Shown here piece by piece: positions 18,157-33,546 of a stretch of 64,000 bases of DNA (positions are counted from its first letter, which is position 1; every line of letters starts with the position of its first letter). The stretch is from Bacteroidetes bacterium CG2_30_33_31 (lineage in GTDB: Bacteria > Bacteroidota > Bacteroidia > Bacteroidales > UBA1556), in NCBI GenBank assembly GCA_001872625.1, contig MNXP01000049.1:100142-164141 (forward strand), written 5' to 3'. A program made the translations under genes and the position numbers. A model generated the notes under the pieces. The model ran no database searches. It was given only the letters and a program-made list of their open reading frames with translations, and was not told the origin of the DNA.

Positions 18157-19647
18157 CTAAATATTTTTAAGAATCTTTCTTTGAGCTTCAGTAATTTGTT
18201 TTGTGGTAAATTTATTCTTAGCTAAAATTGATTCCACTTCTTTTATAGATTTCTTACTGATATTTATGAAAAATTTATTTCTTAAATCGTCATTTGCTTT
18301 AGCCACTGCTTGGCTAATGGTTTTTGAATCGATTTTTTTTAAAGCTGACTTAATTTTAGTATCAGAGATATTTAGTATATCTGAAATAGTATTATCTTTT
18401 GGAATATCAGCAATATAGATATCACTATCTAAATTATTTATTTCTGATTTATTTATGTTTTGAAAAGCTTCATTTACCCTAATTTCAAAATCAGAAAATA
18501 CATTCATATAGTTTATAAAAGCTTCATAAGGAGTTCCGTAAGGATTAAAATATTTATGTACATCACCATCGGAAAACCATTTGGTACACATATAATAGAA
18601 ATGGTCGGAAGTTTGCAAATATTCCCAATCTATGGTTAGATTGTAGTCGTTAACTGCTTTCACTTTTTCTTCCATTTGATATAACTTATTATAGGCCTCA
18701 TCTTGCAATTCATTGCCAAGCCAAGCTGTCAAATCGCGTTCCTCATCAGCCCAACTTATTGGATGTTGCACATGTATTGGCGCTATCACTTGTAACTTAT
18801 CTGATAATTCTGATGGAGTGTTGAAGGTAAAATTTGACATTCCTAAAACTTTTCCAGGCAAAGCTTTCATAAATTCAAATATTCCAGTGCTCTCCCATTG
18901 ATGTTCGCCAAAAGTTTCATAATCCATAAAAAGGTTTACCACTTCTTCATTTTGATCTATTTCATTTAGCCAGCCAACAAATTTTTCGGTAGTGAGAGGC
19001 CATGCTGGCCATGAATTTTGAGAGAATCTAAAAGCAATATCATCGCTAAGTTGAAAATTTTTCAGAAGCAATTTCAAGCGTGGATTAATGGCATTGCAGT
19101 ACATATAATTAGGTGATTTCCAGCCCATAATATGTTTGGCGCCTTCTGTAAGCATAGTTTTAAATCCCATGTCATCCACCATTGAACCAATTTCATCGGA
19201 GTAGATAAGTTCGGTATTTCTAAAGGTCTGAGGTTCAATATTAAAAAGTTCTTTTATTTTATTCTGGTGTTTTTTTACTTGAGTAGTAAATTCAGTTTTG
19301 CTTTTTAAGGCTGAGAGAGAATGAGTATAAGTTTCGGAAAGAAACTCTACTGAACCAGTAGCAGCAAGTTTTTTAAAACTTTCTATCACGTCGGGAGCAT
19401 ACCTTTCAAACTGATCAATGGCAGTTCCTGAGATAGAAAAAGCAATTTTGAAATTACTGCCATATTCGTTTATCAAGTCCAAAAGAACCTGATTCATAGG
19501 TAAATAACATTTATCCGAAACGCGCCTTATAATATAAGAATTTTGATAATCATCATAATAATGGTGGTCTTTTCCAATATCGAAAAAGCGATATTTTTTA
19601 AGTCTAAAAGGTTGATGAACCTGAAAATAAAAGCATATTGATCTCAT
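18157..19647 (-). CDS. Glycoside hydrolase family 57 enzyme with a C-terminal FliG_C-like helical module
   Basis: The track ORF (550 aa) over-extends into the upstream gene. I start at MRSICFYFQVHQPFRLKKY (ATG 19647-19645), the canonical GH57 N-terminus containing the HQP motif. Also present: FMDYETFGEHQW. The last ~75 aa resemble FliG C-terminal domain. Confidence 0.8.
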   Translation of the reverse strand: MRSICFYFQVHQPFRLKKYRFFDIGKDHHYYDDYQNSYIIRRVSDKCYLPMNQVLLDLINEYGSNFKIAFSISGTAIDQFERYAPDVIESFKKLAATGSVEFLSETYTHSLSALKSKTEFTTQVKKHQNKIKELFNIEPQTFRNTELIYSDEIGSMVDDMGFKTMLTEGAKHIMGWKSPNYMYCNAINPRLKLLLKNFQLSDDIAFRFSQNSWPAWPLTTEKFVGWLNEIDQNEEVVNLFMDYETFGEHQWESTGIFEFMKALPGKVLGMSNFTFNTPSELSDKLQVIAPIHVQHPISWADEERDLTAWLGNELQDEAYNKLYQMEEKVKAVNDYNLTIDWEYLQTSDHFYYMCTKWFSDGDVHKYFNPYGTPYEAFINYMNVFSDFEIRVNEAFQNINKSEINNLDSDIYIADIPKDNTISDILNISDTKIKSALKKIDSKTISQAVAKANDDLRNKFFINISKKSIKEVESILAKNKFTTKQITEAQRKILKNI

Positions 19648-19657
19648 ATCTTTTCGA

Positions 19658-20938
19658 TTAATTATTTGTAAGAGAATTGTAAATATCCATGACTTTTGCT
19701 GCGGCATAATCCCATTTAAGAGCATCGACCTCAGCTTTACCCATGGTGATGAACATTTTAGAAAGTCCTTCGTAGTGCAAAAGACCATAAATTGAATCTG
19801 AAAGAGCATCTATATCCCAGAAATCTACTTTCAAGGCATAATGCAAAATTTCTGAAACGCCACTTTGTTTGGAAATAACAACTGGCACGTTAGAACTTAT
19901 TGCTTCCAATGGAGAAATACCAAAAGGTTCTGAAACAGAAGGCATTACATATACATCGCTAAGTGCAAACATTTTATCAACCTCTACTCCTTGCAAAAAT
20001 CCTGTAAAGTGAAACCTGTTTGAAATGCCTAATTCAGCAACGCGTTTTATCATTTTAAGCAACATATCACCTGAGCCAGCCATAACAAATCTAACATTTT
20101 TATCTTTCTGCAAAATTTTATATGCCGCCTCCACAAAATAATCAGGTCCTTTTTGAAAGGTTATCCTACCGAGAAATGTAACCACTTTTTCTTTTACGCC
20201 TCTTGACAATCCATAATAGTCTGATTTATTTGAAGTCTCCACAGCATTATGAACTGTGAAAACTTTTTCTGCAGGAATTCCATATTTTTCGATTATGATA
20301 TTACGAGTAAGATTGCTTACAGCAATAACGCTGTTGGCAAGCAACATCCCCTTTTTCTCTATCTCATAAACGGTTTGATTCACATTTTCGCCAGATCTGT
20401 CAAATTCAGTAGCGTGCATGTGAACCACTAAAGGTTTTCCACAAACTTTCGATGCTGCAATCCCAGCTTCATAAGTCAGCCAATCGTGAGCATGAATTAT
20501 GTCATAATCACCGTTAGCGGCTATTTGAGCAGCTACCAGAGCATATCTTTTAACTTCCTCTATCAAATTCTTTGCGTATTTTCCAGAGAATTTAAAATTT
20601 TTGGAAAAGACTGACTCATTTACTTCATTCTCATATTCAATTTTGCGAGTGATACGATAAAATTCATCATCATCAGCATAAGGAACTAATGTTGAATCAA
20701 TTTCAATGTAATTTAATTGATTCCAATATTCTTTAAAAATTGTATTTCTATAATCAATGGAGACATCGCTGGCACTGAGAATTCGGATATCTTTGCTTTC
20801 ATCGCCGTAGGCTTTAGGAATCACAAAAGTAACATTTGCACCTTGATTTAGCAGACCTTTTACAAGTCCGAAACAAGCAGTACCAAGTCCTCCAGTAATA
20901 TGAGGAGGAAATTCCCAACCAAACATTAAAACTTTCAT
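19658..20938 (-). CDS. GT4/GT5-type glycosyltransferase (bacterial/archaeal-type glycogen synthase-like)
   Basis: 426-aa ORF. The N-terminus MKVLMFGWEFPPHITGGLGTACFGL is the GT-B glycine-rich start. C-terminal EPFGISPLEA motif. A 4-nt overlap with the debranching gene upstream and a 10-nt gap to GH57. Confidence 0.75.
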   Translation of the reverse strand: MKVLMFGWEFPPHITGGLGTACFGLVKGLLNQGANVTFVIPKAYGDESKDIRILSASDVSIDYRNTIFKEYWNQLNYIEIDSTLVPYADDDEFYRITRKIEYENEVNESVFSKNFKFSGKYAKNLIEEVKRYALVAAQIAANGDYDIIHAHDWLTYEAGIAASKVCGKPLVVHMHATEFDRSGENVNQTVYEIEKKGMLLANSVIAVSNLTRNIIIEKYGIPAEKVFTVHNAVETSNKSDYYGLSRGVKEKVVTFLGRITFQKGPDYFVEAAYKILQKDKNVRFVMAGSGDMLLKMIKRVAELGISNRFHFTGFLQGVEVDKMFALSDVYVMPSVSEPFGISPLEAISSNVPVVISKQSGVSEILHYALKVDFWDIDALSDSIYGLLHYEGLSKMFITMGKAEVDALKWDYAAAKVMDIYNSLTNN

Positions 20939-23323: not shown

Positions 23324-26300
23324 ATGAAAAGGATATTTAAAAACATAAGGATTAATAAAAAATTTTTGAAAGGACTATCTATCTTGACAGCTATCAAATT
23401 AATTATTAGCATTATTGTATTTACTTTGATTAGCATAAATGCTAAAAGCCAAGTAATTAATTCAGTTGATACAGCTTATTATGGAGCAAATATTCAGTTT
23501 GCAATTAATACAGGCAACATTGCAAGTCAGAAGTGGTATTTTGGTGATGGCGATAGCAGTAATATTTCAACAACTTATCATATCTATACTCCTTCATCAT
23601 GTGGCTTCACTACTTTTAATTTAGTATTAAGTATAACTGACTCATCTAACTATACTTCAATTCATTATAAAACTATTGTTATAAAGAATTTGCCATCAAC
23701 GCCATCGCTTAGCGATATTGATTTAATCACTCCTTACAGCAATTGCGACCAAAGTCCAAGCATTTCAAATCCAAATTTTACCATTCACCTAAATAATTCA
23801 ACGCAAGACACTTCAAATATATCTTATTATCAGATTAATTGGGGGGATAACAATTCATCAAATTCAATAAGTAATACTGGATTTCCAGTATCACATACAT
23901 ATCAACAATTGGGTCTTTTTAATTGCGCCATAACAGCCTATAATACCAATGGATGCAGCCTTTCAACAACTTATGAAGTTGCTAATCAAAGTAATCCAGC
24001 TTTAGGATTAAGCACTTTAGGAAGCACACAAGGTTGCTCACCACAAGAATTCACCTTTATTCTTTCTCAATATCAAACCAATTCACCAGGAACATATTAT
24101 GTATGGAATTTTGGCGATGGAAGTCCAAATATAACTTGGAATTTTAATGCTCCATATTTTAATGATTCCATAAAACATATTTTCAATACTTCTTCTTGCA
24201 ATTCTACAAACAACTCATTTACAGTAAGTGTAACGGCTTACAATTTTTGTGATCAAACAACTGCAACTGTCAGCAATATAAGAATTTATACCAAGCCAAC
24301 TGCCAATTTCAGCAGCTCGTTGGATACTTCATGCACAAATACTTCCATCAATTTTTCAAATAATACATTATCTGGTTTTGGATATAATTGTAATGGAAAT
24401 GCGAATTATTTATGGGATTTTGGCGATGGAACATCGAGCAACTCAACAAATGCTATTCATTCGTATAACAATATTGGCAATTATACTGTAAAACTAACTG
24501 CTACTAACGGTGTTTGCGGAAGTTCAGTAGATAGTTTAAATATTATTGTAAATAAAATTCCAAAAGTAATTGGTGCAATTTCTCAATCTATTGCATGCGA
24601 TTCTCTAATAGTTAGCACAATGAATTGGAGCACTGGAGGCAACCTTAAATATAATTGGACTATAATTCCTTCCGTGGGTTGGCATTTTTTAAGTGGATAT
24701 TCTGCATCAGATAAGGAGCCCAAAATTTTGTTTGATTCACTTGGAATTTACACTCTGAAGTTAACTTCCTCCAATAAATGTGGTACCGACGATAGCAGTT
24801 TTACAATTACGATCATGGGAAAACCTGATGTAAATTTATCTACAATAGCTGATTTTTGTGGCTCTGCGACTATAAATCCTTCTGCAAATATTAATTTGAA
24901 TTTCTCAAATTCAAGTTCATATCTTTGGTCGTTCATTGGATCATCAATTTCAAGTACAAATATTCAATCTCCAAATAATATAATATATTCAAATACTGGA
25001 ACTTATAATATAATATTAAAAGTATCAAATCAATGTGGAATTGACAGTTCAGTCACGAGTTTCACTATACATAATTTGCCAGCGGTGAACCTTACAGCAG
25101 CATCAAATTCGATATGTTTTGGCGATAGCATTTCTTTATTTGCCTCTGGAGCATTTTCATATCAATGGACAGCAAATCAATCGCTATTGAATACATCGTT
25201 AAGTCAAATTTTAGTAAATCCAATTTCATCAACAACTTATATTTTAAAAGGGACTGACATTCATCAATGCGTTAATTATGATACATTAAATTTGATTGTA
25301 AATAATTTACCGAGTGTAATTGGCAATGCATCTAATACTTCATTTTGCAATGGAGATTCCGTTACTTTAACGGCAAATGGTGCACTAAGTTATTTATGGA
25401 AAATGAATGGAAGTAATATTGGAAACCAACAAATTATAAGCATTCTACCAAATCAATCCTCATCAATAATTGTTATAGGAACAGACACAAATTCTTGTAA
25501 ATCTTCTGACACTATCAACTTAACAATGTTCGTTAAGCCAAGCATAACTCTTAATAGTATTTATCCTCAAATTTGCCAAGGAAATAGTTTTAATTTGATT
25601 GCAAGTGGGGCAAGCAATATCTCAATTAACCCTGCAACTACGGTCAATTCAAATGGAAATTTCATTCTTTCACCGAGCTCTTCATGTATTTATACAATCA
25701 CCGCCTCCAATTTAACTTCTTGTAGTTCAGATACTATCATTCATGTTACGGTTTTAAATCTTCCAAATGTGAATATTACAAGCAATTCTTCAAATATCTG
25801 TGCAGGAGATACTTTTACTTTAAGTGGCAATGGTGCAGTAAATTATGAGTGGTATAATAGTGCAGGAGTAATAATATCGCAGAATGCAAACCTAAATTAT
25901 TTACCAACTACAAGTGGCAGCATTGTATTGGAAGGCGAGGATGTTAATGGTTGTGAAAATAATGATACATTATTTTATACAGTTTTCCCACTTCCGCAAA
26001 TTACTATCAATAGTAGTTCAAATTCAATTTGCGTAGGTGATAGCGTATTGTTAAATGCAAGTGGTGCTGTAAGTTACAACTGGTTAATTTCAAATCAGAT
26101 TATAGGGAATAGTTCTAATTTAGTTCAAATTCCAATTTCTTCTACAACATACAAAGTTGTGGGAACAGACCAGAATTCATGTTCAAATTTAGCAACCCAA
26201 CTAATTGTAGTCAATCAATTACCAATATTGAATGCAACACTCAATAATTCACAGATGTGTTTTGGTGACTCAGTATATCTAAGCTTAAGTGGAGCCGTCA

Positions 26301-29300
26301 ATTATTCATTAAATTCTGTAAATATTTCAGCTAATAAATATTTAAAGCCAACTATTACAAGTATTTACAATGTTATTGGTACTGACATTCATAATTGCAC
26401 CGACACTACAACATTTTCTATTAAAGTAAATTCATTGCCAACAATTGCAATAAATTCCACTGCTCAATCGATTTGTCTTGGCCAATCAGTTCAATTAAAT
26501 GCAAGTGGAGCTTCTCAATATTCATGGAATCCAGCATCAAATTTAAATACAGCCTTTGGAAATCAAGTTATTGCAACTCCAAATCAATCAGCAATTTTTA
26601 CTGTTCAGGGAACAGATAGTTTAGGTTGCAAAAATCAAGTTTCAATATCCATTATGGTAAGCAACAGTTTGAATATTCAGGTTAATGCTTCATCATCTTC
26701 AATTTGCTATGGCGACACAGTCAGTTTAATTGCTTCTGGAGCAAATACTTATCAATGGATTTCTGGCAATGGCTTATTGTCTCAAACAGGGAATCAGGTC
26801 AATGCATTTCCAAATTCAACTTCAAATTATGTGGTTACTGGCATTGATACTATGGGTTGTATTTCTACAAACAGCGTAAATGTGGTAGTTAATCAACTTC
26901 CAAATATTGTAATAGCAAGCTCTAATCAAAGTATTTGTTTAGGCGATAGTGTATCACTTTCTGCGTCAGGAGCGGCACAATACGAATGGGTTTTTCCAAA
27001 TAATTCTTCAATATTTTCAAATTCAATAGTTGAATATCCTCAAATAGGTACGACATATCAAGTCAAGGGAACCGACACAAATTTATGCAGCAATTACTCT
27101 TCAGTTTTTATAAGCATTAATCCAAATCCAGTGATTCAAGCAACCTCAAATAACTCGAGCGTTTGTAGTGGTGGGAACTTCATTCTTACTGCATCTGGAG
27201 GCAGCTTATACCAATGGTCGCCACAAAATCTTGTAAGTACACCGAATTCAAATTCCACTCTAGCAACGCCGTCACAAAGTGCTTGGATATATTTAAATGG
27301 AAGTAATTCTTATGGTTGCACAGCAATTGATTCAATTTATTTGACTGTAAATCCATTGCCAATTTTCACTTTAAGCCCTTCATCTGTTGCTATTTGCGTT
27401 GGCGATAGTGCTTTAATTTCTGCTTCTGGCAATTATCAATATAGCTGGACTCCAGCCAATGGCATTAGTAATAATTTTGGTAACAGCATTAAAGTTTCAC
27501 CATTAAATTCAATAAACTATACTGCAACAGCGACAGATTCAAATTTATGCTCAATTACAAAAAATATTTTAGTTACCGTAAATTCCTTGCCAACAGCTTC
27601 AATTTCAATGGATACAGTTGCTTGTAGCAACGTTGCGGTGAACATTGTAAATCAAAGCTACGGAGCAACTCAATTTTTTTGGAGTTTTGGAGATAATACT
27701 ACATCTAATCTACAAAACCCATCTCACTCCTATTCAAGCAATGGTTTCTATGAAGCAAGTTTAGTTGCTATTAATTCCAATAATTGCACTGATACTGTAA
27801 AAAACGAAATTCACATAATTAGTGTTCCCACAGCAACTTTCACATCATATCCACAGATCGGCTGTTCGCCATTAAATGTATTTATAAATAATAACTCTAC
27901 TGTGAGCAATGGCTCATATTCTTGGAATTTTGGCAATGGAAATTATTCATCTAATGCAAATCCAAATAATATTTTATTCAATTCTGTTGACGGGCATGAT
28001 ACCACATTTATTATTCACCTTTCATTAGCAAATATCTGCGGTACAAGTAACTATAGCGATACTATTACGGTTAATACTAAACCGATTTCCAATTTCGGTT
28101 ACGTTCTTAATAGCCAATGTTCGCCAGCGACAGCAAATTTTGGAAATATCAGTTCATCAAATGCAACATCATTTAGCTGGAATTTAGGAGATAATACTTT
28201 TTCCAACTCACAAGTTCCACAAAATCATATTTATTCGACAGGAAGCACAGTTAGTACTTTTCCTGTTTCAATGATAGCGTCAAATCAGTGCGGTTCAGAT
28301 ACTTCAATAAAATATATTAGTGTAAATCCAAATTACGTAAATGCCATTTTTACACCTTCTCAAATAAATGCTTGTGCGCCAGCCAACATCAATTTTACGA
28401 ATTACTCTAATATTCAAAATTCAGCACTTTGGAATTTTGGTGATGGAAATGTCTCTTCGCAAATAAATCCTACTCATGTTTATTCTGCCGCCGGCAATTA
28501 CAATGTATCTTTAATTGTAACAGATAATTGTGGAATTGACACTGCAAATATTACAATAAATGTAGGAAATTCTCCACAGCTGAGTTTCAGCACAAGCAAT
28601 GATACTATTTGTCAGTTTAGCTCTGTTAGTTTTAATAATTTGACTTCAAATCTAACCAATCTTCAATGGAATTTCGGGGATTCAATAACTTCTACACTTA
28701 ACTCATTATCACATACTTATCAAAGTTTTGGTAATAAACTTATAACATTTATTGGAGAAGATGCAAACTCAAATTGCACTGATACAATTTCAAAAATTAT
28801 TGTTGTTAATCCTTCAGCAAAGGCGATTATTAGCGTTGATACATTGGATGGATGTTATCCATTGACCGTAAATTTTCAAAGTCAGAGTATAAATTCAACA
28901 TTTTTTAGATGGAATTTCGCTGATGGAAATACCTCAGTTTCACAAAACATTCAGCATACTTTTTTAAATCCAAATAATTATAATGTTCAATTGGTTGCTG
29001 ACAATTATTTTGGTTGCAAGGATACTACTTATACAATAATTAAGTCCTACCCAAGACCGCAAGCAAATTTTACTTTTATAAATACAAATCCATGTGAATA
29101 TCCTGCTAAAATAAAGTTTATCAATAATTCAATTGGCGCTGTTGGATATTCTTGGAATTTTGATAATGGAGATAGTTCCAAAATTAATGATCCCATAGTA
29201 AGTTATAGTAATTCTGGAAATTATCATCCTACTCTTATTGCATTAAATGCTTATAATTGTAGCGATACTTTGTCAAATACATTAAGTTTGTTGAGTACAC

Positions 29301-30109
29301 CAAAAGCCAATTTTACGATTGACAATACAATTGGCTGTGAAGGAATAAATATTCAATTTACAAACTATTCCACTGATGCTCAATATTATAAATGGCTTAT
29401 AGATTATAACTTTATATCTTCATTGAACTCTCCTTTATTAACATTTACTTCAGAAGGTAAATTTATTTCGACATTAATCGCAATTAATTCTGCAGGTTGC
29501 AGCGATACTAATTCTTCATCAGACACCATAATTATTCATCCACGAGCTGTTGCAGATTTCAATTTTGAACAAGTCTCGAACACAGAAAATAATGAAGGAA
29601 TTTTTCAATTTACTAATTTATCTGACAAAGCAGATTTCTACAGTTGGCAATTTGATGATGGTGATTCATCAAATGCTATAAATCCTCAACATAGATTTTA
29701 TACCCACGGAGATTATAACATAACTCTCTATGCAACAAATAAATATAACTGTTCTAATCAAATTTCAAAAAATCTATCTGTTGATTTGCTAAAAGGTCTT
29801 TTTATTCCTTCAGCTTTGGCTCCAAATCATCCAAATCCTGATGTTCGACTTTTTACGCCAAAGGGAAATGGTCTAAAATCTTATCATATTGCTATTTATG
29901 ATTCATGGGGAAATATAATATGGGAATCTACTCAGTTGATAAATGGTCAACCAGCAGAAAGTTGGAATGGAAGTGTGGACAGAAAAGAATTGCCTTTAGG
30001 AACATATTTTTGGCAAGCTGTAGCAGTTTTCGAAGATGGCAGCATTTGGCAAGGCCAAACAGTTAACGGCACAACTTCGCGTCAAGGCTCTCTTACATTG
30101 CTTAGATAA
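23324..30109 (+). CDS. Giant cell-surface protein: ~15 PKD-like domains, 11 tandem Ig-like Cys-containing repeats and a T9SS type-B (gliding-motility-associated, CHU_C-type) C-terminal sorting domain
   Basis: 2261-aa ORF with an N-terminal signal anchor. Recurrent W-x-FGDG/FGDN/FDNG PKD signatures on both sides of the repeat block. The C-terminal ~95 aa are IPSALAPN...LFTPKGNG...YHIAIYDSWGNIIWES...WNG...LPLGTYFW...RQGSLTLLR, matching the type-B CTD pattern. Confidence 0.85.
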   Translation: MKRIFKNIRINKKFLKGLSILTAIKLIISIIVFTLISINAKSQVINSVDTAYYGANIQFAINTGNIASQKWYFGDGDSSNISTTYHIYTPSSCGFTTFNLVLSITDSSNYTSIHYKTIVIKNLPSTPSLSDIDLITPYSNCDQSPSISNPNFTIHLNNSTQDTSNISYYQINWGDNNSSNSISNTGFPVSHTYQQLGLFNCAITAYNTNGCSLSTTYEVANQSNPALGLSTLGSTQGCSPQEFTFILSQYQTNSPGTYYVWNFGDGSPNITWNFNAPYFNDSIKHIFNTSSCNSTNNSFTVSVTAYNFCDQTTATVSNIRIYTKPTANFSSSLDTSCTNTSINFSNNTLSGFGYNCNGNANYLWDFGDGTSSNSTNAIHSYNNIGNYTVKLTATNGVCGSSVDSLNIIVNKIPKVIGAISQSIACDSLIVSTMNWSTGGNLKYNWTIIPSVGWHFLSGYSASDKEPKILFDSLGIYTLKLTSSNKCGTDDSSFTITIMGKPDVNLSTIADFCGSATINPSANINLNFSNSSSYLWSFIGSSISSTNIQSPNNIIYSNTGTYNIILKVSNQCGIDSSVTSFTIHNLPAVNLTAASNSICFGDSISLFASGAFSYQWTANQSLLNTSLSQILVNPISSTTYILKGTDIHQCVNYDTLNLIVNNLPSVIGNASNTSFCNGDSVTLTANGALSYLWKMNGSNIGNQQIISILPNQSSSIIVIGTDTNSCKSSDTINLTMFVKPSITLNSIYPQICQGNSFNLIASGASNISINPATTVNSNGNFILSPSSSCIYTITASNLTSCSSDTIIHVTVLNLPNVNITSNSSNICAGDTFTLSGNGAVNYEWYNSAGVIISQNANLNYLPTTSGSIVLEGEDVNGCENNDTLFYTVFPLPQITINSSSNSICVGDSVLLNASGAVSYNWLISNQIIGNSSNLVQIPISSTTYKVVGTDQNSCSNLATQLIVVNQLPILNATLNNSQMCFGDSVYLSLSGAVNYSLNSVNISANKYLKPTITSIYNVIGTDIHNCTDTTTFSIKVNSLPTIAINSTAQSICLGQSVQLNASGASQYSWNPASNLNTAFGNQVIATPNQSAIFTVQGTDSLGCKNQVSISIMVSNSLNIQVNASSSSICYGDTVSLIASGANTYQWISGNGLLSQTGNQVNAFPNSTSNYVVTGIDTMGCISTNSVNVVVNQLPNIVIASSNQSICLGDSVSLSASGAAQYEWVFPNNSSIFSNSIVEYPQIGTTYQVKGTDTNLCSNYSSVFISINPNPVIQATSNNSSVCSGGNFILTASGGSLYQWSPQNLVSTPNSNSTLATPSQSAWIYLNGSNSYGCTAIDSIYLTVNPLPIFTLSPSSVAICVGDSALISASGNYQYSWTPANGISNNFGNSIKVSPLNSINYTATATDSNLCSITKNILVTVNSLPTASISMDTVACSNVAVNIVNQSYGATQFFWSFGDNTTSNLQNPSHSYSSNGFYEASLVAINSNNCTDTVKNEIHIISVPTATFTSYPQIGCSPLNVFINNNSTVSNGSYSWNFGNGNYSSNANPNNILFNSVDGHDTTFIIHLSLANICGTSNYSDTITVNTKPISNFGYVLNSQCSPATANFGNISSSNATSFSWNLGDNTFSNSQVPQNHIYSTGSTVSTFPVSMIASNQCGSDTSIKYISVNPNYVNAIFTPSQINACAPANINFTNYSNIQNSALWNFGDGNVSSQINPTHVYSAAGNYNVSLIVTDNCGIDTANITINVGNSPQLSFSTSNDTICQFSSVSFNNLTSNLTNLQWNFGDSITSTLNSLSHTYQSFGNKLITFIGEDANSNCTDTISKIIVVNPSAKAIISVDTLDGCYPLTVNFQSQSINSTFFRWNFADGNTSVSQNIQHTFLNPNNYNVQLVADNYFGCKDTTYTIIKSYPRPQANFTFINTNPCEYPAKIKFINNSIGAVGYSWNFDNGDSSKINDPIVSYSNSGNYHPTLIALNAYNCSDTLSNTLSLLSTPKANFTIDNTIGCEGINIQFTNYSTDAQYYKWLIDYNFISSLNSPLLTFTSEGKFISTLIAINSAGCSDTNSSSDTIIIHPRAVADFNFEQVSNTENNEGIFQFTNLSDKADFYSWQFDDGDSSNAINPQHRFYTHGDYNITLYATNKYNCSNQISKNLSVDLLKGLFIPSALAPNHPNPDVRLFTPKGNGLKSYHIAIYDSWGNIIWESTQLINGQPAESWNGSVDRKELPLGTYFWQAVAVFEDGSIWQGQTVNGTTSRQGSLTLLR
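25073..27583 (+). repeat. Eleven in-frame tandem ~76-aa (~228-nt) repeats inside the giant surface protein gene
   Basis: Each unit follows (N/Q/P)LP-x-(V/I)-x(6-8)-(I/F)C-x-GD(S/T)-x-L-x-ASGA-x-x-Y-x-W ... G-x-D-x-x-x-C ... (I/V)-x-V. First unit NLPAVNLTAASNSICFGDSISLFASGAFSYQW, last PLPIFTLSPSSVAICVGDSALISASGNYQYSW. The units are diverged at the nucleotide level. Confidence 0.85.
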
Positions 30110-30116
30110 ATATTGA

Positions 30117-30851
30117 TTAATTTTTCTCATCAATTTTTTTTAGATATTCTGACGCAGCATTTAAAGTCTCGATTTTTCCACAATCGAACCAGTAACTGTT
30201 ATTATCTTGATAAGCTAAAATTTTTTGTGATGAAGCTATTTCAAGATAAAAAGTTGTCAATGACCACTTTTTTATTTTGCCTAAAAGATTTAAAATCTTA
30301 GGAGAAATAATATGTATACCACTGAAAGCCAATTCATTTAAATTAATAGAATTACTATCATAAATAATTTCTTCAAATGTCAATTTATTCCTCCACCCTA
30401 CTAACCTATTGTTTTGGTTGAAAAGAAAATATCTTGAAGTATTTCTATTTCTCACAGCCAGGCTAATATCGGCATGATTGAATTTGTGAAAGTTTATAAA
30501 TTTTTGTAAATCAAGATTCGTTATGATGTCAACATTATAAAGTAAAATATCCTCATCAGAATCAAAGAAATATTTTGCTTGGGCAAGTCCACCAGCCGTA
30601 TCGAGAAGTTCAACTTCATAAGACAGGCTAATATTTACATTATCAAAGTGGTGAGTATTTAGAAACTCAATAATTTTTTCAGAAAAATGATGAGTATTTA
30701 TAATAATATCAGTAAAACCAGCATCTGAGATATAATTTATAGCTCTTTCGAGCAAAGATTTTTCGGCAACTATTGCCAAAGCTTTGGGCTTATCTTTTGT
30801 AATTGGCATAAGTCGGCTACCCAATCCTGCTGCAAAAATCATAGCTTTCAT
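30117..30851 (-). CDS. murU: Sugar-1-phosphate nucleotidyltransferase, MurU-like (N-acetylmuramate-1-phosphate uridylyltransferase candidate)
   Basis: 244-aa ORF. MKAMIFAAGLGSRLMPITKDKPKAL is the NTP-transferase G-loop. Overall similarity to P. putida MurU as I recall it. The start overlaps the stop of the upstream kinase gene (ATGA). Confidence 0.65.
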   Translation of the reverse strand: MKAMIFAAGLGSRLMPITKDKPKALAIVAEKSLLERAINYISDAGFTDIIINTHHFSEKIIEFLNTHHFDNVNISLSYEVELLDTAGGLAQAKYFFDSDEDILLYNVDIITNLDLQKFINFHKFNHADISLAVRNRNTSRYFLFNQNNRLVGWRNKLTFEEIIYDSNSINLNELAFSGIHIISPKILNLLGKIKKWSLTTFYLEIASSQKILAYQDNNSYWFDCGKIETLNAASEYLKKIDEKN

Positions 30852-32275
30852 AATCTCTTCATTTCTTGTTCGCGATGACGTAAAACCACTTTCACATTAT
30901 ATTTATCCTTAATAAAGCGGCTAATTTTTTCGGCAAAATAAACCGAACGGTGCTGACCACCAGTGCAACCAAAATTTATTGAAAGCGAATCAAAATTACG
31001 TTCAAGATAATTTTCTACCGATTGACTTACCAACTCAGAAACATTTTTGAAAAATATATTTACCGAATCTTCTCTCTCTAAAAACTCAATAACTGACAAA
31101 TCTATGCCAGTAGCTTCTTGATAGATTTCATATCTTCCAGGGTTTGGAAGTGCTCTGCAATCGAAAACAAAACCACCACCATTTCCACTTTCATCAACAG
31201 GAACGCCTCTTTTATATGAGAAACTATTCACTTGAACAGTAAGATTTTTTGATTGATTGCCCAAGCTTTTCAATTTCTCAGAAACAGCCACACTTTTTAG
31301 TAATGGAATCAAAGTATTTAGTTCAATTGGAAAGATATTATTCTTTAACACATAATTCAGATTGTCCATGGCAAAAGGAATGGAAGCTAAAAAATGAGCT
31401 TTCTTCTCATAAAAACCTCTAAAACCATAAGCTCCCATTGCTTGTAAAATTCTAATAATCACAAAACCTGCATAATACGACTTAAATTCGTCCTCATTAA
31501 TGGTTATGTATTGCTTCAATTCTTCAATATATTTATTTAGTAGAAGATTACGAATATCTTGAGGAATTTCCGCCTTTGCATCATATAATAAGGATGCTAA
31601 ATCATACTGGAGCGCACCACGTCGTCCACCTTGATAATCAATAAAATAAATATCATTATCCTTTAGCATAATATTTCTTGATTGAAAATCACGATAAAGA
31701 AAATACTTGTTATCTGCTTTAAGAAGATAATCTGTAAACTTCTGAAAATCATCTTCTAATTCTTGCTCATCGAAGCTCATTCCCGACAATTTAAGAAAAT
31801 AATATTTGAAATAATTCAAATCCCACATCATCGATTGCTTATCGAAGTCGGATCGGGGATAACAAATAGAATAATCCAAATTTTCTGATGCAATAATTTG
31901 AATTTTAGGCAATTGTGATATTATTTTCAAATATAAATCCAACAAATCTTTAGTAAATCCACCTTTTATTTGCTCCTGGCTTAGAAATTTGAACAGAGTG
32001 GTATCACCCAAATCTTCAATTAAATAAATATTGTTAGCAATGTCATCAGCATAAATAATTGGAACCTTAATACCTTTAGCAAGAAACTGTTTGCTAAACT
32101 CAATGAAGGCAAGGTTTTCGCGAGCATTTGGATTTAAAACCCCAAGAGCTTGTTTGCTTGCTGACACAATGCGAAAATATTTTCTATCGCTTCCCGATAT
32201 TGCAAGTGGCGTAATCTTTACAGCTTTTTCACCAGCCCAGTTATTATAAAGTAAAGTTATCTTCGGATTTATCAT
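30848..32275 (-). CDS. Fusion: AmgK-like anomeric sugar kinase (APH/choline-kinase fold) + RapZ C-terminal domain
   Basis: 475-aa ORF. Residues 1-335 are a phosphotransferase with catalytic loop YRDFQSRNIML and metal loop FIDYQGG. Residues ~345-470 read LTVQVNSFSYKRGVPVD...FVFDCRALPNPGRY...INFGCTGGQHRSVYFAEKI, matching the RapZ/YvcJ C-terminal domain. Confidence 0.75.
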   Translation of the reverse strand: MINPKITLLYNNWAGEKAVKITPLAISGSDRKYFRIVSASKQALGVLNPNARENLAFIEFSKQFLAKGIKVPIIYADDIANNIYLIEDLGDTTLFKFLSQEQIKGGFTKDLLDLYLKIISQLPKIQIIASENLDYSICYPRSDFDKQSMMWDLNYFKYYFLKLSGMSFDEQELEDDFQKFTDYLLKADNKYFLYRDFQSRNIMLKDNDIYFIDYQGGRRGALQYDLASLLYDAKAEIPQDIRNLLLNKYIEELKQYITINEDEFKSYYAGFVIIRILQAMGAYGFRGFYEKKAHFLASIPFAMDNLNYVLKNNIFPIELNTLIPLLKSVAVSEKLKSLGNQSKNLTVQVNSFSYKRGVPVDESGNGGGFVFDCRALPNPGRYEIYQEATGIDLSVIEFLEREDSVNIFFKNVSELVSQSVENYLERNFDSLSINFGCTGGQHRSVYFAEKISRFIKDKYNVKVVLRHREQEMKRL

Positions 32276-32457
32276 TGTCTAATAATTTAATTATCACAAA
32301 TTTAAGTTATGATACAAAATCAAATAAAAGTGTTCAAAATACTTATCCACAATTGATTGAGGAAAAGTTTGGGACTTTTAACAAAAAAAATAAAGTTAAA
32401 ATCATATTTCCTTTGCTAATTTTATACATTTGCAATCTTAATGAATTAAAAATTGCG

Positions 32458-33546
32458 ATGATGAAAAGGTTTTCAATATTATTATTGATTTTAATGGCAG
32501 CAAATATTAGTACAATATTTGCTCAAAGCGGCATAATTAGTTTTGAATCGACTACCAATGATTTTGGAACTATAAAAGAAGAGATAGGAAAAGTTACAAC
32601 CAAATTTTACTTTACCAATGTTGGAAGTGGTGATTTGAAATTGGTGAATGTTAAGCCGAGTTGCGGTTGTACTTCTTCTGAATATTCAAAAGAAATAATT
32701 AAGCCAGGTGAAAAAGGTTTTGTTTCAGCAACTTACTTCACCGCAAATCGTCCAGGGCCATTCAGAAAATCTATTACCGTAACCACAAATGATGTTGACA
32801 GGCCAAATACAATTTTGTTTATTAAAGGAACCGTTACGCCATTAAATACATCTGCTGAAGATGAACTTCCAATCAGCATTGGCAATTTAAAATTAATGAC
32901 TAACCATTTGGCATTCAATGATATTAAGAGCAACGAAATTAAAGTAGATTCAGTTAAAATCTACAACAAGTGGGGCCATCCTATGAATATTGGTTTTCAA
33001 GAAGTACCATCAAATGTTAAAATTGAAGCAATTCCAGCAGTATTGGAAAGCGGTGAATTTGGTTATATAAAAGTTACTTATGATGCAAAAAAGAGAAATG
33101 ATTTTGGATTAATATTCGATAGAATTGCAATTTCAACTAATGATAATGTGCAACCAATCAAGGTGTTAAATATATCTGCAAGAATAATTGAGGATTTCTC
33201 AAAACTTAATGAACGAGACCTCAAAAAATCGCCAATAATTTCATTTAAAGAAACTGATTTCGACTTTGGAAATGTTGTTGCCGGCACCGTTGTTAAACAT
33301 AACTTTGTGTTTACAAATCAAGGCAAAAGTGATTTAATAATCAGGAAAACAAAGTCATCATGTGGCTGTACGACTGCTGATTTAAAAAATTCGGTAATCA
33401 AAAAAGGCAAGACTGGTAGTATTGATATTGAATTTAATACCAGTGGAAGAAAAGACCGAGAACATAAAACGGTAACAATAATTACCAATGACCCAAAAAA
33501 TCATGAAATTGTTTTAAATATTCATGGTGAAATTTCGGAAAAATAA
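32458..33546 (+). CDS. Secreted DUF1573 protein (two DUF1573 modules flanking a central beta-rich region)
   Basis: The track ORF starts at 32275. I prefer MMKRFSILLLILMAANISTIFAQ (32458), which is a clean signal peptide. Two copies of the DUF1573 signature: NVGSGDLKLVNVKPSCGCT and NQGKSDLIIRKTKSSCGCT. Confidence 0.75.
   Translation: MMKRFSILLLILMAANISTIFAQSGIISFESTTNDFGTIKEEIGKVTTKFYFTNVGSGDLKLVNVKPSCGCTSSEYSKEIIKPGEKGFVSATYFTANRPGPFRKSITVTTNDVDRPNTILFIKGTVTPLNTSAEDELPISIGNLKLMTNHLAFNDIKSNEIKVDSVKIYNKWGHPMNIGFQEVPSNVKIEAIPAVLESGEFGYIKVTYDAKKRNDFGLIFDRIAISTNDNVQPIKVLNISARIIEDFSKLNERDLKKSPIISFKETDFDFGNVVAGTVVKHNFVFTNQGKSDLIIRKTKSSCGCTTADLKNSVIKKGKTGSIDIEFNTSGRKDREHKTVTIITNDPKNHEIVLNIHGEISEK

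Follow-up and report, generated by a model that had tools for sequence, protein, structure and literature searches.

A RapZ C-terminal domain fused to AmgK-like sugar kinases is widespread in Bacteroidota and other bacteria

The sugar kinase AmgK and the uridylyltransferase MurU form a salvage shortcut to UDP-N-acetylmuramic acid (UDP-MurNAc; UDP, uridine diphosphate) that bypasses MurA and MurB, giving rise to intrinsic fosfomycin tolerance. The MurNAc auxotroph Tannerella forsythia has no other route to UDP-MurNAc, and targeting the pair with drugs has been proposed for that species. Here we describe an AmgK-like kinase gene and its MurU-like neighbor from a 64,000-nt stretch of the genome of Bacteroidetes bacterium CG2_30_33_31 (contig MNXP01000049.1, positions 100,142 to 164,141; hereafter the window), in which the kinase carries RapZ's C-terminal domain. 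Throughout, K denotes the AmgK-like kinase domain, Z the RapZ C-terminal domain (RapZ_C) and U the MurU-like uridylyltransferase. Published work reports the AmgK/MurU pathway for Bacteroides and finds it functional in T. forsythia (PMC8054146, PMC7670621, PMC10941766). The T. forsythia enzymes (Hottmann 2021; Wodzanowski 2022), a Bacteroidales pair shown to convert MurNAc to UDP-MurNAc, have been used heterologously in Escherichia coli on MurNAc probes, and the literature that we searched on this pair makes no mention of a RapZ_C domain.

The RapZ C-terminal domain (CTD) itself is well described in E. coli, where its pocket binds sulphate or malonate, the backbone phosphates of GlmZ and probably glucosamine 6-phosphate (GlcN6P), and where the variants H190A, G249W, R253A, C247A and C247S are all inactive (PMC9841335). 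On its own, the CTD both dimerises and binds GlcN6P, with D182 required for its self-interaction (PMC7073468). For the homolog YvcJ, binding of UDP-N-acetylglucosamine (UDP-GlcNAc) depends on Walker A (PMC7525490). The occurrence of AmgK together with RapZ, or of RapZ_C outside RapZ proteins, is not described in the literature that we searched. The fusion therefore appears to be undescribed, in agreement with an initial annotation of this DNA, made from the sequence alone, which knew of no characterised example.

The window protein is encoded by a single uninterrupted open reading frame (ORF; Table 1), as the initial annotation had claimed. The motifs YRDFQSRNIML, FIDYQGG, LTVQVNSFSYKRGVPVD, FVFDCRALPNPGRY and INFGCTGGQHRSVYFAEKI, to which it had drawn attention, are all found, and the nucleotide coordinates that it gave for the two halves of the protein are correct. 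Within the N-terminal half, the Pfam family APH (PF01636) matches residues 21-240 at 2.6e-7 (31.1 bits against a gathering cut-off of 23.2), and the hallmarks of that family are present, namely the (H/Y)RD....N loop as Y194-R195-D196-F-Q-S-R-N201 and a downstream metal-binding aspartate, D213. The full-length AlphaFold2 (AF2) model has a mean predicted local distance difference test score (pLDDT) of 91.1 and a predicted template modelling score (pTM) of 0.73. Its top Foldseek matches are all APH, choline-kinase or MTR-kinase folds, the first being PDB 3csv at 1.2e-12, which is also matched by sequence at 4.7e-17 (HMMER). Both the family score and the fold matches thus bear out the APH/choline-kinase fold first proposed for this half.

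Residues 345-470 of the C-terminal half match PF22740 (PapZ_C/RapZ C-terminal domain) at 5e-33, spanning positions 1-120 of the 121 in the Pfam model, with 114.3 bits against a cut-off of 27. The isolated domain was modelled by AF2 with a pLDDT of 92.8 and a pTM of 0.88, and this model superposes on the RapZ CTD (5o5s) with a TM-score (TMt) of 0.92, a root-mean-square deviation of 1.5 A, 34-35% identity and a Foldseek E-value of 3.8e-9. Among 266 Foldseek matches at E <= 10, none besides the RapZ chains was significant. Profile and fold comparisons thus agree with the family assigned to this part at the outset. The alignment with E. coli RapZ, which the initial annotation had described as essentially free of gaps, was reproduced by HMMER against 5o5o over residues 333-473 (1.5e-17) with one 5-residue gap. 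The N-terminal P-loop domain of RapZ is missing, as had been noticed: the NCBIfam RapZ model NF003828 is matched only at positions 146-277 of 278, with 107.6 bits against a cut-off of 244, and a regex search of the 475-aa protein found no Walker A motif. With the P-loop half missing and the score under the cut-off, the K-Z protein is by these measures not a RapZ. Between the two domains, the linker region (residues 313-344) has mean pLDDT values of 78-96 per 10-residue block in the AF2 model.

The best NCBIfam matches for both enzymes belong to the salvage pathway. The top two kinase families for K are the AmgK models NF045759 and NF045698 (5e-19 and 1e-13), the best family match extending through the entire kinase domain, and the aligned portion of 3csv scores 235.7 bits on NF045698, so that the nearest solved kinase is itself AmgK-like. 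U matches NTP_transferase at 2.6e-20 (Pfam), and its best NCBIfam family is MurU (NF045761) at 1.1e-32, over model positions 1-224 of 226.

Table 1. Features of the K-Z/U locus, numbered on the window, with the loci of one recurrent neighboring gene
Feature	Position	Strand	Basis or remark
K-Z gene, 475 aa	30848..32275	-	single uninterrupted ORF, ATG start, stop TGA 30848-30850; Pfam and NCBIfam
Kinase domain, aa 1-312, APH/choline-kinase fold, AmgK-like	31340..32275	-	Pfam, NCBIfam, PDB 3csv
Catalytic loop R195-D196-F-Q-S-R-N201, HRD-like	31673..31693	-	D196 is the predicted catalytic base
I212-D213-Y-Q-G-G217, metal-binding DFG-equivalent motif	31625..31642	-	family alignment
Structured linker, aa 313-344, helices 322-330 and 333-340	31244..31339	-	AF2 secondary structure
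RapZ C-terminal domain, aa 345-470	30866..31243	-	PF22740, AF2 domain model, Foldseek
Anion (sulphate/phosphate) pocket loop C437-T-G-G-Q-H442-R443-S444	30944..30967	-	equivalent to RapZ C247, T248, G249, H252, R253
Remodelled pocket region: G364-N-G-G-G368 insert, F371-D372-C373-R374, N378-P379-G380-R381	31133..31186	-	HMMER and family alignment
ATGA stop/start overlap, K-Z and MurU-like gene	30848..30851	-	read in sequence (..tta tga / atg aaa gct..)
MurU-like sugar-1-phosphate nucleotidyltransferase, 244 aa	30117..30851	-	NTP_transferase, NCBIfam MurU
TAAATTTG, candidate -7 promoter element	32297..32304	-	22 nt 5' of K-Z ATG; weak candidate
~240-aa divergent gene (gene -1)	L005, L007, L010, L011, L017, L019, L020, L025, L026, L027, L031, L046

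The same architecture is common in public sequence data. Our protein search returned at least 8000 matches, and the 120 proteins among the matches listed were all about 475 aa long and, with one exception, carried both Pfam domains; where names were given, they read 'phosphotransferase' only. A species scan, based on one genome per species and two peptide patterns, confirmed K-Z loci in at least 588 species genomes. Eighty loci were kept for analysis, and the match spans residues ~1 to ~471 in all of them. According to their record titles, these loci come from Prolixibacteraceae, Draconibacterium, Saprospiraceae, Cyclobacteriaceae and other Bacteroidota, and from Calditrichota, Ignavibacteria, Neomarinimicrobiota (Marinimicrobia) and Acidobacteriota. 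Single metagenome-assembled genomes labelled Elusimicrobia, Methylomirabilis, Deferribacteres and Baltobacteraceae have K-Z as well. In the complete genome of Bacteroides ilei, the K-Z and MurU-like genes lie 4 nt apart, and the K-Z protein is 45% identical to that of the window over residues 6-475. Across Bacteroidota, and through much of the bacterial tree, K-Z is the form that this kinase normally takes. The initial annotation had spoken of a grafted module and had proposed a survey of its prevalence; by this survey the fusion is no unusual graft.

The association with U extends well beyond the window. A MurU-like gene lies directly 3' of K-Z in 48 of the 76 loci (out of 80) that had enough flanking sequence to be informative, including every locus labelled outside Bacteroidota. 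The ATGA overlap at the K-Z/U boundary, first pointed out in the initial annotation, was read directly in the sequence; 4-nt overlaps of this type recur in nine of the 80 related loci, and two more show a 1-nt overlap. Judging from these overlaps, K-Z and the MurU-like gene are translationally coupled, as had been proposed.

An exhaustive search with RapZ_C alone returned 3188 representatives at E<=1e-3, of which 242 reached E<=1e-30, and the best 150 were mostly the same K-Z fusion. Others were joined differently. Five independent clusters (P0144, P0161, P0174, P0193 and P0247) encode K-Z-U proteins, single polypeptides of 722-768 aa with APH, RapZ_C and NTP_transferase domains, in all of which MurU is the best match of the third domain and AmgK the top family of the kinase part. 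In P0144, which occurs on five contigs, one of 93 kb, the junction is in frame, running from ..LRHRELGIERE into MGKKALVLAAGLG... Two further clusters consist of RapZ_C-MurU proteins about 390 aa long: P0128, on three contigs, and P0272, on 15 contigs of up to 97 kb. A kinase gene of its own (335 aa in locus L081) stands ahead of each. In this split form, the break falls exactly at the domain boundary, and the linker (equivalent to aa 313-344) is kept on the kinase gene. The spacer between the split genes is 53 nt long, A-rich and non-coding, with a 2-nt indel between contigs, and contig differences in the coding parts are at third positions and apparently synonymous. Additional Z-U and K-Z-U clusters are present among the RapZ_C relatives. 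Z is thus found in three arrangements, K-Z plus U, K plus Z-U, and K-Z-U, always in the order K, Z, U. Three arrangements in a fixed order indicate that Z goes with the two enzymes as a pair rather than with the kinase by itself. The initial annotation had described a module grafted onto a kinase, a description that has to be given up because other lineages fuse Z to MurU or to both enzymes, always between them.

Some RapZ_C relatives departed from these arrangements. P0295 (L088 3295-5437) looked like a Z-U gene with no kinase; tblastn located the kinase, broken over three frames, on this long-read contig, so that P0295 is a frameshifted K-Z-U, either an artefact or a pseudogene. In the 570-aa protein P0162 (L089 7-1719), HEAT repeats replace the kinase ahead of the usual linker and RapZ_C. 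The next gene is MurU-like and overlaps it by 4 nt. The only contig, of 3.1 kb, starts at the P0162 gene, and either a chimeric assembly or a genuine replacement of the domain may account for it. P0220 (718 aa) has a DNA_pol_A 3'-5' exonuclease domain ahead of APH-RapZ_C, and may be a merged gene call.

To describe the conservation of the fusion, we aligned 81 family sequences from all phyla found. The kinase residues R195, D196, Q198 and N201, and likewise D213, Q215, G216 and G217, are present in 81/81 sequences, and R200 in 79/81. In Z, the pocket-loop residues C437, T438, G439, G440, H442 and S444 are found in 81/81 and R443 in 80/81, and N378, P379, G380, D361, D372 and R374 in 81/81. The Z pocket is therefore conserved as strictly as D196, N201 and D213 of the kinase. 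Its loop, Cys-X5-Arg-Ser, lies between strand 430-437 and helix 443-458 in the AF2 model. Five of the six RapZ pocket residues (H190, T248, G249, H252, R253 plus C247) are kept and invariant, and the sixth, H190, is replaced by G380 in 81/81, with R/K381 beside it. A Gly-rich insert, G366-G368, present in 80-81/81 sequences, lies opposite a 5-residue gap in E. coli RapZ (HMMER). The basic RNA-binding tail of RapZ (K270, K281, R282, K283) is not conserved: K270 aligns to V461, and at positions 472-475 between 15 and 49 of the 81 sequences have gaps and the rest vary, the window protein ending in ..MKRL. A second cysteine, C373, occurs in 71/81. It (codon 31157-31159) adjoins D372, the equivalent of the RapZ dimer-contact D182, and the codon of C437 is at 30965-30967; it is conceivable that C373 and C437 form a redox-sensitive pair.

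Our preferred interpretation, to which we assign a probability of about 0.5, is that the locus encodes a salvage unit of a Bacteroidota/FCB (Fibrobacteres-Chlorobi-Bacteroidetes) type of AmgK-MurU, in which Z binds a sugar phosphate and regulates or couples both enzymes. K would act as an anomeric amino-sugar kinase, producing MurNAc (or GlcNAc) alpha-1-phosphate, and the co-translated U would convert this sugar-1-phosphate to the UDP-sugar for peptidoglycan synthesis. Z would be the constant third module between K and U, retaining the strand-loop-helix anion pocket of RapZ, and would most likely bind a phosphorylated amino sugar or a sugar nucleotide of the cell-wall precursor pool. Through ligand binding, and probably through dimerisation like that of the RapZ CTD, it would then regulate or couple K and U. 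Feedback sensing by Z is plausible. The pocket differs from that of RapZ, with glycine in place of H190 and a Gly-rich insert, and the ligand therefore need not be GlcN6P. Beyond the architecture, conservation, distribution and fusion arrangements observed, this interpretation supposes a sugar specificity, a bound ligand and an allosteric or coupling effect.

Several observations weigh against it. The proteobacterial AmgK-MurU pathway works without a Z module, and Z is therefore dispensable for the core chemistry. Passive binding is a less typical role than catalysis for an invariant cysteine in a Cys-X5-Arg loop. In 27 of the 76 informative loci, from Draconibacterium, Mariniphaga and other Bacteroidota, mainly Prolixibacteraceae, there is no MurU-like gene within 8 kb. 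The family scores of both enzymes are also low: K reaches 68.6 bits against an AmgK equivalog cut-off of 550 and 51.4 against 500 (NCBIfam), and U reaches 113.8 against 250 on NF045761 and 77.1 against 370 on NF045697. In pairwise comparison U matches the PDB structure of MurU, 4y7t, at 6.4e-14, with mannose-1-phosphate guanylyltransferases scoring slightly better. The initial annotation had called the kinase AmgK-type and the downstream gene MurU-like, and these names hold as the best family matches, although neither gene qualifies as an equivalog. K-Z is not an AmgK equivalog by NCBI criteria, yet it most probably works like AmgK. Because both assignments fall so far below the cut-offs, we infer, rather than demonstrate, that MurNAc or GlcNAc is the substrate, from synteny and the Bacteroidetes literature.

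One alternative is that Z is purely structural, a dimerisation or bridging module that joins K and U, possibly passing the sugar-1-phosphate between them, without a regulatory ligand. The fixed order K, Z, U, with Z fused to either partner or to both, would suit such a role, as would the structured linker and the pTM of 0.73 of the full-length model. The RapZ CTD dimerises alone, and its dimer-contact residue D182 corresponds to the invariant D372. However, an invariant anion pocket made up of C437, T438, G439, G440, H442, R443 and S444 is more than a scaffold requires, and we consider a purely structural role doubtful.

A second alternative takes the pocket cysteine as evidence of chemistry. 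Z could be a Cys-dependent module for sugar-phosphate phosphatase or phosphotransfer activity, such as an analogue of MupP (MurNAc-6P -> MurNAc; MurNAc-6P, MurNAc 6-phosphate), which would make K-Z(-U) a salvage enzyme with three activities. The motif C437-X5-R443-S444, invariant in the 81-sequence alignment, sits on a strand-loop-helix in the AF2 model, like the P-loops of phosphatases, and workers on RapZ suspect chemistry at this cysteine (PMC9841335). Phosphatase activity has been reported for the RapZ homologs YvcJ and HpaP (cited in PMC7525490), although in the literature searched these activities are not assigned to the CTD. Z always lies inside the enzyme unit, and the pathway requires a MurNAc-6P phosphatase, which is MupP in Pseudomonas; the comparison in the MupP paper is limited to proteobacterial genomes and never mentions Bacteroidetes. 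On the other hand, T. forsythia takes up MurNAc in free form and, by prediction, lacks AnmK, so that a 6-phosphatase is not obviously needed there, and the K-Z family has Gly at the position of RapZ His190, a residue essential in E. coli. A search for a phosphatase fold in Z was likewise unsuccessful: no PTP, LMW-PTP, ArsC or EIIB was found among the best 50 of the 266 Foldseek matches, of which only RapZ was significant, with PFK and APS-kinase at E ~1-2. The resemblance of Cys-X5-Arg to phosphatases therefore stays at the level of the motif, and we regard a catalytic role of Z as unlikely. The broader proposal that Z is an enzyme rather than a sensor, acting on a phosphorylated amino sugar, and that the adaptor and sensor roles of RapZ are later co-options of an ancestral domain that processed sugar phosphates, seems to us rather unlikely. 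If Z were catalytic, K-Z plus U, or K-Z-U, would be a complete three-step salvage machine.

Independently of what Z does, the K-U pair might activate a sugar other than MurNAc or GlcNAc, in which case the link to peptidoglycan salvage would be wrong. In favor of such a substrate, the AmgK and MurU matches are far below the equivalog cut-offs, U is closest in pairwise terms to mannose-1-phosphate guanylyltransferases, and the neighbors in the window are unrelated to cell-wall recycling. Yet no family scores above AmgK for K or above MurU for U, either in the window or in any of the five triple fusions, and the fused type of kinase gene adjoins MurU in Bacteroides ilei. Surveys in the literature list AmgK/MurU for Bacteroides and T. 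forsythia, and in E. coli the T. forsythia pair acts on MurNAc probes. A different sugar is accordingly an improbable substrate.

The remaining alternative, also raised in the initial annotation, is that Z docks a small RNA and/or RNase E/G as E. coli RapZ does, and so controls amino-sugar gene expression; RNA backbone phosphates do sit in the same pocket of RapZ (PMC9841335), RapZ K170 corresponds to K355, present in 58/81 sequences, and an RNase E/G gene lies directly 5' of the split kinase gene in the K plus Z-U lineage (L090 1991-3565, L091, L081 1-87), but the basic RNA-binding tail at the C-terminus is variable or absent across the 81 sequences and is said, along with GlmY/GlmZ, to be restricted to Enterobacteriaceae (PMC7073468), and RapZ acts as a tetramer that requires the N-terminal domain lacking in K-Z, all of which makes RNA docking highly improbable. 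As a general link, the adjacency of RNase E/G was rejected, since tblastn against all loci and the window found it in one lineage only, with no instance in the other 80 loci or in the window.

The genes that surround the locus in the window are unrelated to cell-wall recycling, and encode a DUF1573 surface protein, RecQ, an SIS-CBS isomerase, glycogen enzymes and a PKD protein with a type IX secretion system (T9SS) signal. The last of these (23324-30109, plus strand) has 2261 aa with PKD repeats and a C-terminal CHU_C type IX secretion signal, and its stop and that of the convergent MurU-like gene are 7 nt apart. On the other side, the divergent gene at 32275-33546 (plus strand) has two DUF1573 domains and HYDIN/VesB-like Ig domains. 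Its listed TTG start shares base 32275 with the kinase ATG and is almost certainly wrong; an ATG at 32458/32461, before the signal-peptide-like MMKRFSILLLILMAANISTIFA, would give a divergent intergenic region of about 180 nt. Upstream of the kinase, the weak candidate element TAAATTTG fits TAnnTTTG, the Bacteroidota -7 consensus. A scan of the locus with sigma-70 promoter and terminator models was uninformative for a Bacteroidota genome. Farther away, a cluster for glycogen metabolism that includes a GT4/GT5 synthase and a debranching enzyme also contains a GH57 glycoside hydrolase gene (18160-19809, minus strand), which has an unexpected FliG_C-like match at its C-terminus (2.3e-9).

Elsewhere, three gene families (2, 3 and 4) recur beside K-Z genes that have no MurU neighbor. 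The ~240-aa divergent gene on the 5' side (family 2) recurs in 12 loci without an adjacent MurU, from Draconibacterium, Mariniphaga and Prolixibacteraceae. Judged by eye from its sequence, it may be a DUF218/YdcF-type envelope protein. Family 3, often 3' of K-Z where MurU is absent, resembles, again by eye, a YebC-type regulator. Neither of these two resembles a nucleotidyltransferase.

The AmgK-MurU pathway is already known, and the K-Z architecture is visible in public domain annotations. What appears to be undescribed is the constant presence of a RapZ-type module as third part of this unit, shuffled from one enzyme to the other. If the Bacteroidota version always has this module, gut and oral Bacteroidales probably control or organise their salvage flux differently from the Pseudomonas paradigm. 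The K-Z family also offers a natural experiment on the RapZ C-terminal domain apart from RNA biology, and the ligand and suspected chemistry of that domain are a question of interest in the RapZ/YvcJ field.

Compared with the known salvage enzymes, K has in common with AmgK (Pseudomonas putida PP_0405 type) the APH fold, the catalytic motifs and a MurU gene partner, whereas the proteobacterial AmgK is without the C-terminal RapZ_C that K-Z has. U and MurU (PDB 4y7t, 8hhd) are both minimal sugar-1-phosphate nucleotidyltransferases encoded directly 3' of the kinase; unlike MurU, relatives of U in related lineages are joined to RapZ_C or to K-Z. In the proteobacterial anabolic recycling route the third component is MupP, a HAD-family MurNAc-6P phosphatase of Pseudomonas with a fold unrelated to Z; a third activity on a phosphorylated MurNAc is thus known for this pathway. 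Within Bacteroidales, the AmgK of T. forsythia probably belongs to the K-Z family, because Bacteroides ilei has the fused type. Compared with RapZ (E. coli YhbJ; 5o5o, 5o5s, 8b0i), Z shares the loop residues C247/C437, T248/T438, G249/G439, H252/H442 and R253/R443 and, beyond the loop, D182/D372, R184/R374 and the N188-P189 motif. It differs in having G380 for H190, a Gly-rich insert and a second cysteine, and K-Z has neither the N-terminal P-loop domain nor a conserved basic tail, the partner of RapZ_C being instead an APH-fold sugar kinase. YvcJ (Bacillus subtilis) and HpaP (Xanthomonas) resemble K-Z in having RapZ_C without the RNA-binding tail and are linked to UDP-GlcNAc or cell-envelope homeostasis. 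They keep the P-loop NTPase domain and partner GlmR/YvcK, whereas in K-Z the same C-terminal domain is partnered with a sugar kinase.

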